Part shown: positions 59,276 through 60,914 of the stretch, in pieces
Layout of the letters: each line of letters begins with the position of its first letter
Position numbering within the stretch: the stretch's first letter is position 1
Source of the DNA: Okamejei kenojei
Lineage: Eukaryota
Reading direction: 5' to 3'
DNA: 64,000 nt
Assembly: GCA_035221665.1 (NCBI GenBank)
Contig: CM069140.1
Span: forward strand, 40,796,001 to 40,860,000
Position numbers and translations under genes: made by a program
Notes under the pieces: model-generated
What the model was told of the DNA's origin: nothing
The model's input: only the letters and a program-made list of their open reading frames with translations
Databases searched by the model: none

Positions 59276-59829
59276 TGTCAAAGTTTGTTTCTTAAAAAGC
59301 AGATAGCAACAAAAACTGTTAAAGGTAAACCGTTGCAATCTTTAATTGATTAATCAGATGGGAGTGACGAGATTACAATGAGCACAAACGTTGCTCAGTG
59401 CTTCTCGGGCTTCCACTCTCAGAACAAAGGACAGTTAGCACAATTATACATTTTTCTTCTCAGTAAAACACTCCTACAAAGTCTGAATATGGCATGACTG
59501 AAAGATTCTGCAACATTTCCGAATATAAGAAAAGCTGGGTCCAAATCAAGCTCATCCAATAACAAGTTATTACTTATCTCTGGAGCACTTTATTTTTTTC
59601 AATCTTGGCTTCTTTATGGCCTTGACAAGAAGCACATGTTATTACTGCAGGCTGCCATCTTAATGTCTTTATTGAAAAGACAACCTGTCCTCCATATTGT
59701 GTTCCATATAATTTACAATGTCATTCAGACTTCGCACCGAGCCATTCTTTTGTTCTACTAGTCCATGCTTTTGTAGAAGAATGACTCCATTTTAGATTTG
59801 ACTATTAGATTTGACTATTAGCTCTTTCA
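59276..59829 (-). mobile_element. 3' LTR (554 bp) of an ERV-like/LTR element
   Basis: Minus strand starts TGAAAGAG right after polypurine tract AAAAAGGAGGGAA (59830-59842), has TATA-like TGTATAATT and ATTAAA polyA signal, ends TTTGACA. Confidence 0.8.
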
Positions 59830-60037
59830 TTCCCTCCTTTTTATCAAACATGATAACATTCACAGTCCTCAATACGTACACACAATGGTCGCAAGTATTA
59901 GAGCAATGATTAGCTGAATGATAGAGCCATAATGTATCGCAGTACCCAAAGTCCACCAAACCAAAGGTATGGTTACCAGTTCAATAGTACCCCAAAGTCC
60001 ATCCAAACCAATCGTATGGCAACCTGTTCTCACTCTG

Positions 60038-60794
60038 TTCATTGACAACCATCCTGATGAAGCTTGTTTAGGGTCAATGGATCAGGTGCCACCTGTAGGC
60101 GGTGTAATCCTTTCAGCTGATATCGGGGTTGTGCCACAAAGTTCGCACCTGTCCAAGGGTGTTGCCAGTCTCTTCGTAGATCGTTGCACAGGTGAGGTGC
60201 TTCCCCCCCCCCCCCCATCTCATCCTGTGGTGGGATTCATCACCTTGATCTAGACGATATCGTATCCGTGGGTTTGGACAGCTTCTCCTCCGAGACGGTT
60301 TGGGTGGCCTGCTTTCACATCACTACGTAGAAGCGGCTGCTGGACTGGAAGCCAAAGACAAAGCCACCATAGATTGTGGTCTGTGTTGACGTAGAAGGTG
60401 CCACTGAAGTTGATGGCGTTGAACTCCTCAAAACCGACAGCAAGGCCAGGGTCAGAGTTGGCGGTCTGCTGTAACTCCCTGCCCTTGTTGTGCACTATCC
60501 AGTTAGGAACTATCTGCATCATCCCCTTTGGAACTTACTCAGGTCAGTTTCACTGATGGCGCTGATCTCGGGGCACATGTCATAGATATCTGGGATGTTG
60601 TTGTCAAAGTCATCCTTGCAGTTGTCTCCTTTGTTGTTACCATCGGCATTGATCTGGTCAGGGTTGGGAACAAAACGGCAATTGCCTTTCTCATCAGAAA
60701 TGCCATCATTGCTATCCTATTCAATGTACTGATTGTCATCACACTGATTACCCACCAGGTCTGAGTCATTGTCTTCCTGGATTGGGTTATGCAT
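60038..60794 (-). pseudogene. THBS2: Intronless thrombospondin-2-like fragment (last type 3 repeats plus most of the C-terminal domain) with stops, frameshifts and deletions
   Basis: Minus translation [163 protein letters not shown] fit THBS2 better than THBS1. Confidence 0.88.
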
Positions 60795-60914
60795 AATCTC
60801 TTTCAAGAGGTCCATCTGTTTCAAAATGTTCAACTTCTCTCTCTCTCTCTCTCTCTCTCTAGAGTCTTGGTCATACGATAGAGCTCAAAATGCTTCAAGA
60901 ATGTTGATTAAATG

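Follow-up and report, generated by a model that had tools for sequence, protein, structure and literature searches.

Capture of host mRNA by endogenous retroviruses (ERVs) and other LTR elements is already described in vertebrates. As reported in the available sections of PMC4299795, CrocERV31 carries nectin3 in the place of env, and CrocERV29 carries KIT-ligand. The LTR-mediated retrocopies of Tan et al. 2016, described from across the animals, include FAM8A1 in HERV-K and mouse IAPEy cases, and the marks given in the available part of that work (PMC5131818) are a partial mRNA, loss of internal element sequence, absence of poly-A and TSD, microsimilarity at the junctions and secondary retroposition. 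Amphibian and fish ERVs with a gamma-type env carry intronless OGFr, according to the accessible part of a preprint (bioRxiv 10.1101/2021.11.23.469661). No capture of a thrombospondin (THBS) gene, or in a skate, was found in the literature searched, a body of work that lies outside closed journals, Repbase, Dfam and supplements; THBS has no mention in the 2026 review PMC13297096, nor in the accessible main text of a 244-genome retrocopy survey (bioRxiv 10.64898/2026.06.26.734816), whose supplements may list it.

The locus described here would add a new gene and a new lineage. It lies in a stretch of 64,000 nucleotides of the skate Okamejei kenojei (contig CM069140.1, positions 40,796,001 to 40,860,000), referred to below as the window. 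The best explanation, to which a probability of roughly 0.7 is given, is that an LTR/ERV element took up THBS2 mRNA at its env position through template switching, the mRNA then being copied as a non-autonomous passenger.

The thrombospondin fragment and its flanks

Positions 60038-60794 of the minus strand hold an intronless, doubly truncated and pseudogenised fragment of a THBS2-like mRNA; it spans host aa 844-1132, which take in the final type 3 repeats and the greater part of the C-terminal domain. The THBS2-like coding stretch, reported at these positions in a preliminary description of the DNA, is borne out by Pfam searches, by the ranking of PDB matches and by alignment to a related protein. 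TSP_3 and TSP_C matches are spread over all three minus-strand frames of 59800-61000. Three pieces of the fragment, each scored against the PDB, ranked human THBS2 above THBS1 and COMP every time (117.5, 91.5 and 80.6 bits for piece 1; 61.2, 56.4 and 29.3 bits for piece 2; 70.8, 67.5 and 60.1 bits for piece 3). The alignment reference was P0003, the 'thrombospondin-2-like' protein of the ray Mobula (1175 aa), a stand-in for the protein of the skate parent; frame-aware alignment placed 60797 to 60038 (minus strand) on residues 843-1132, with 180 of the 247 aligned codons identical and the first identical residue, M844, at 60794. The match breaks off at 60038 and leaves the last 43 residues of P0003 uncovered, in agreement with the earlier remark that the coding sequence halts before the end of the C-terminal domain. 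The window copy is 76% identical to the Mobula protein, versus 59-66% to three named THBS1 proteins; judged by sequence, the fragment is of THBS2 (subgroup A) origin, since it is nearer to THBS2 than to THBS1 or COMP.

The stretch had been called uninterrupted, which holds for introns but not for the reading frame: relative to P0003, the window copy carries six stops, four frame changes and two deletions, of 33 codons and of 1 codon, and with these stops and frame changes it does not have the open frame that a functional retrogene under purifying selection would keep. In vertebrates, this region of THBS1/2 is multi-exonic. When human THBS1 exon sizes are mapped on P0003, two introns are expected to follow residues 849 and 1094 and three to interrupt residues 928, 1004 and 1127; the fragment spans all five junctions so placed, extending 18 nt into the first exon and 16 nt into the last, and it is colinear with host aa 844-1132 across 757 bp. 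The absence of introns and the colinearity support the derivation of the fragment from spliced RNA that the preliminary description had proposed, with the junction positions taken from the human THBS1 exon sizes.

Both ends of the piece fall within coding sequence, the 3' end lying in a coding exon, and no 3' UTR follows. The longest A run between the THBS junction and the purine tract described below is 2, which agrees with the poly-A-less end reported earlier. An own TSD or poly-A had been named as evidence against an LTR-borne origin; the piece has no poly-A, and no TSD above chance. For the TSD, a match to the 5' flank as good as that of the 3' flank was reached by 867 of 3000 random 30-mers, and an 8-base look-alike around the piece was rejected at this chance level. 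Thus, the intact mRNA 3' end with poly-A and the flanking TSD of a LINE-type processed pseudogene are missing, and what is present, a partial intronless host mRNA with neither poly-A nor its own TSD, is the form of LTR-mediated retrocopies. THBS sequence does not resume past the LTR-like segment.

Upstream, the fragment is fused to a non-THBS leader (60795-60914, minus strand), presumably internal sequence of the element, which the preliminary description had overlooked, together with the start of an L1-like element at about 60915. A decayed upstream THBS region was considered for the leader and rejected, as 267 of 1000 shuffles score as well against host aa 791-843. A feature search of the leader in the Atlas gave no usable match, and the 24-residue structure matches mean little. 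The leader contains a (GA)n microsatellite at 60836-60860, which is private to the window copy; the Leucoraja erinacea protein P0006, described below, has a short Glu/Lys-coding stretch there.

Between the end of the fragment and the purine tract lies a non-THBS tail (59845-60037, minus strand), whose measured 193 bp match the approximately 200 bp given earlier. Stops and frame changes break up the tail. Within it are a tandem duplication of 47 bp (59936-60029), a stretch rich in Trp and a hydrophobic stretch of 19 residues (59928-59872), the last in a frame that ends across the purine tract. The hydropathy of the hydrophobic stretch, 2.17, was reached by 30 of 614 window tiles and by 61 of 2000 shuffles (p 0.03-0.05). 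Decayed THBS was rejected as the source of the tail, with 981 of 1000 shuffles scoring as well, and so was P0005, the sole HMMER match among 1.84 billion proteins, a tandem-repeat protein that owed its score to seven weak repeats. None of 11 candidates was an env homolog of the tail, leader and tail alike gave no homology to viral proteins, and neither the ISD nor the CX6CC of a gamma-type env TM was seen in the tail, where the possible membrane stretch (p 0.03-0.05) is without a homolog. At the same time, the Trp-rich and hydrophobic stretches and the frame that crosses the purine tract make up what we take to resemble the end of an env gene. This weakly suggests an env-like membrane segment, possibly a remnant of the env transmembrane region; the odds of an env origin of the tail are about even.

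The putative 3' LTR and the surrounding repeats

A polypurine tract (PPT) followed by AA stands directly ahead of TG at 59830-59844 on the minus strand. It was matched by a 17-nt query consisting of the 13-nt tract of MuLV, as printed in the available part of PMC3407194, and four further bases, AATG. This query has one match in the window (59844-59828, two mismatches), while shuffled sequences gave a mean of 0.02 matches and 2 of 100 shuffles reached one; at least 11 purines followed by AATG occur at only two sites, both strands counted. The co-oriented purine tract abutting TG, noted previously, is thereby confirmed, and the arrangement of PPT, AA and TG at the start of an LTR is a retroviral feature that is not exclusive to class I ERVs.

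The following segment (59276-59829, minus strand; 554 bp, TG..CA) is a putative 3' LTR, with TATAA at 59448 and then ATTAAA at 59346, arranged as expected for U3-R-U5; CTAG at 59272-59275 is a candidate target site of 4 bp. Beyond the CA end, at 58792-59275 on the plus strand, lies half of a non-autonomous DNA element that is presumably Harbinger-like (a terminal repeat after TAA, 22-bp subrepeats). A subrepeat of this element (family D2) runs to 59273, 2 bp from the CA end, and this supports the CA boundary of the putative LTR. The partner terminal repeat was not found within the window. Insertion of the LTR element into the Harbinger-like element seems to have taken place. The segment has no second copy in the 64-kb window and no Pfam or Rfam support, and because it is single-copy there, the label 'LTR' is based on anatomy and not on dispersal. 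As regards the 554-bp TG..CA LTR of the preliminary description, the length and the ends stand, but no dispersal is seen within the 64 kb.

On the 5' side, 120 bp upstream of the THBS piece, an L1-like LINE begins in the opposite orientation (60915-64000, plus strand; ORF1 at 61366-62181). Its ORF1 matches only LINE-1 ORF1p structures, and weakly (4/4 matches, best E 0.004); a putative ORF2 endonuclease at 63250-64000 was recognised by eye only, the Pfam search being negative. Since the L1-like element appears to run past 64000, the 5' half of the LTR element is hidden, and no 5' LTR, PBS or element TSD was seen within the 64-kb window, nor any pol of this LTR element, the 5' side being interrupted by the L1-like insertion. 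The L1-like element opens with two tandem 18-bp units (60915-60952) and has a 52-bp C run near the ORF1 start (61105-61156); between ORF1 and the presumed ORF2, short inverted repeats form a palindromic cluster around (AT)n tracts (62904-63060), and a spaced duplication of 167 bp is located at 63071-63343. No Rfam matches were obtained in 57000-64000.

The window as a whole is AT-rich and repeat-dense, with LINE and DIRS-like remains, and contains no tRNA genes. The DIRS-like remains (48680-52600, minus strand) present a reverse transcriptase, a methyltransferase-like stretch and a tyrosine recombinase in this order (Pfam RVT_1, Dam and Phage_integrase), and a near-complete LINE ORF2 with endonuclease and reverse transcriptase, which we take to be CR1-like, occupies several frames of 40638-43675 (plus strand), with many shorter copies elsewhere. 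Tandem arrays of 30, 32 and 36 bp are situated at 46047-46271, 15255-15443 and 17194-17349, respectively, and the 30-bp array has an inverted partial copy near 17854-17953.

Further copies in Leucoraja erinacea

The preliminary description had envisaged a non-autonomous family if the chimera proved multicopy, and protein searches supplied two more copies, both predicted 'thrombospondin-2-like' proteins of L. erinacea that end before the 3' junction. P0002 (223 aa, 113.5-Mb contig) was the best of three matches among 201 candidates for a query made of the leader and the type 3 block; P0006 (181 aa, 61.9-Mb contig) was among the 20 matches of 189 candidates obtained with P0002 as query. The nearest proteins in these searches come from skate and ray. 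The window copy, P0002 and P0006 have in common the non-THBS leader, its point of junction with the fragment, the deletions of 33 codons and 1 codon and the two earliest frame changes; after host residues 965 and 1022, the two L. erinacea proteins enter the same shifted frames as the window copy. The end of P0006 coincides with the codon of the window stop at host W1045, and that of P0002 with the codon of a different one, at host W1107. Because leader, junction, deletions and early frame changes are shared, the chimeric unit is multicopy and was most likely damaged before multiplying. On this protein evidence, the chimera would occupy two loci in L. erinacea, the window copy representing either a third locus or the orthologue of one of them.

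In the type 3 block, the pairwise identity of the three copies is 76-77%, which in a simulation corresponds to a neutral DNA divergence of approximately 10-12%, with wide limits. In a tree of seven rows (the three copies, which fill less than half of the kept columns, and four named host proteins), the copies form a clade relative to the host THBS proteins (99/97), within which the window copy and P0006 are nested (93/91, not starred); 15 unnamed matches of the P0002 search and one hypothetical protein were left out. Three derived columns of the type 3 block unite the window copy with P0006, and none unites either other pair. APOBEC-like hypermutation was considered and is not claimed: among the amino-acid changes, G>A and C>T counted 22 and 5.8, with opportunities of 117 and 69 (p 0.06).

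The statement that the window copy is disabled holds, but the copy is not alone in this, the early lesions being common to all three. Since these lesions are shared, the THBS piece was most likely dead before it spread. On the other side, the first two frame changes cancel each other, so that P0006 has an open frame of 181 codons, and two of the three copies retain the host RGD motif (KGD in the window copy). In each of the three copies about 55 codons are out of frame, and the window copy and P0002, which represent both branches, stop at the same codon, host W1107, ahead of the tail. P0002 and P0006 contain out-of-frame stretches, and P0002 appears to skip a few codons to switch frame. By their sequences, these two RefSeq-type models are probably pseudogene copies annotated as genes, which would affect counts of the skate thrombospondin family.

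Origin of the chimera and comparison with known systems

One observation in favour of capture is that the THBS piece is co-oriented with, and upstream of, the rare PPT-AA-TG signal. The proposed course of events would begin in an ancestor of the skate lineage, when RNA of an LTR element, probably a class I (gamma/epsilon-like) endogenous retrovirus, was packaged together with a spliced THBS2-like mRNA. The reverse transcriptase may have jumped to the mRNA within the last of its large coding exons, read through five splice junctions for about 870 nt and switched back to the element, so that the THBS piece would have taken the place of most of the sequence at the env position, immediately upstream of the purine tract. 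Deletions and frame changes would then have arisen in the founder; the chimera, having retained its cis signals, could have been recopied in trans as a non-autonomous element, which would account for the window copy and at least two L. erinacea loci, with the THBS piece as an inert passenger. The window copy presumably landed in the Harbinger-like element and was later split by the L1-like insertion. Capture by template switching rather than by a LINE, as first suggested, agrees with the RNA origin, the double truncation, the missing poly-A and TSD and the position upstream of a PPT and a TG..CA segment; the switching itself, the ERV class, the env position and retrotransposition as the copying route are what we infer.

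Against capture, ordinary retrocopies are not unusual in this group, as cartilaginous fishes hold many of them (14,081 in the available part of bioRxiv 10.64898/2026.06.26.734816), and the same source names non-LTR elements as the main origin of vertebrate retrocopies. A LINE enzyme might have put an internally primed THBS2 cDNA into a resident ERV, which then carried the piece. LINE remains are abundant in the window and an L1-like element is only 120 bp away; nevertheless, this route is unlikely, given the absence of poly-A, 3' UTR and TSD above chance and the 3' end within a coding exon, and the neighbouring L1 cannot have transduced the piece because it is oppositely oriented, with its 5' end facing the piece. 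Least probable of all the readings is that 59276-59829 is no LTR, with an accidental purine tract and accidental TG..CA ends, and that an ordinary truncated processed pseudogene is all that the piece represents. Such a reading would suit a segment with no second copy in 64 kb and no Pfam or Rfam support, but the PPT-AA-TG match is expected 0.02 times, the promoter and polyadenylation motifs follow the LTR order, and the CA end abuts a different repeat.

Two other proposals are partly compatible with capture itself. The extra copies could stem from segmental duplication after a single capture and a single insertion, the window perhaps being the orthologue of the P0006 locus. The known copies number three, from protein searches scoring 201 and 189 candidates, and the window copy clusters with P0006 in the tree; P0002 and P0006 come from separate large contigs, and divergence is about the same among all three copies (76-77% identity), as expected of a short transposition burst, which is suggestive against duplication, and we hold this course to be decidedly unlikely. 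It is very improbable, too, that an ancient skate retrovirus swapped its env ectodomain for the RGD-bearing, calcium-binding end of THBS2, fused in frame to the leader and membrane anchor of the virus, and that this served adhesion or immune modulation until the surviving copies decayed; if true, an extracellular-matrix protein would have been captured by a retrovirus as an envelope replacement. Slightly more improbable still is the further claim that the founder expressed this leader-THBS2-membrane-anchor chimera, an env substitute with an RGD-bearing matrix domain, and spread thereby. P0002 and P0006 have leader and THBS in one frame, the cancelling frame changes keep P0006 open for 181 codons, RGD persists in two copies, a hydrophobic stretch lies downstream, and a precedent exists in the nectin3 of CrocERV31, under purifying selection according to the available sections of PMC4299795. 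These points are opposed by the approximately 55 codons out of frame in all three copies, by the stop at host W1107 ahead of the tail in the window copy and P0002, by a C-terminal domain without its last 43 residues and by a hydrophobic stretch at p 0.03-0.05 that has no homolog.

Should capture by template switching be correct, cartilaginous fishes and a matrix gene would join the known cases of retroviral-style capture of host mRNA, and it would mean that a captured gene piece can spread once dead; since the copies share disabling lesions, multicopy capture alone is no sign of benefit. Among the marks listed by Tan et al. 2016 (PMC5131818, available part), the partial mRNA and the absence of poly-A and TSD are found here, and the 5' junction and lesions present in three copies would fit secondary retroposition in part; both LTRs and junction microsimilarity were shown for those cases, whereas the window holds only a 3' LTR-like segment. 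Similarly to the OGFr-bearing ERVs (bioRxiv 10.1101/2021.11.23.469661, accessible part), a host gene was seemingly captured by a retrovirus of an anamniote and is multicopy, although most copies of those elements, up to thousands, have an intact env, while no intact env was seen here and three copies are known. In the CrocERVs, as far as described in the available sections of PMC4299795, the captured genes are near-complete open frames under purifying selection, unlike the skate piece, which is doubly truncated and bears disabling lesions in all three copies; the host also differs, being a cartilaginous fish, and the element class is here the one that we infer. What the skate locus nevertheless has in common with CrocERV31 and CrocERV29 is a host mRNA without introns that lies towards the 3' end of the internal region of a probable ERV and is present in several copies.
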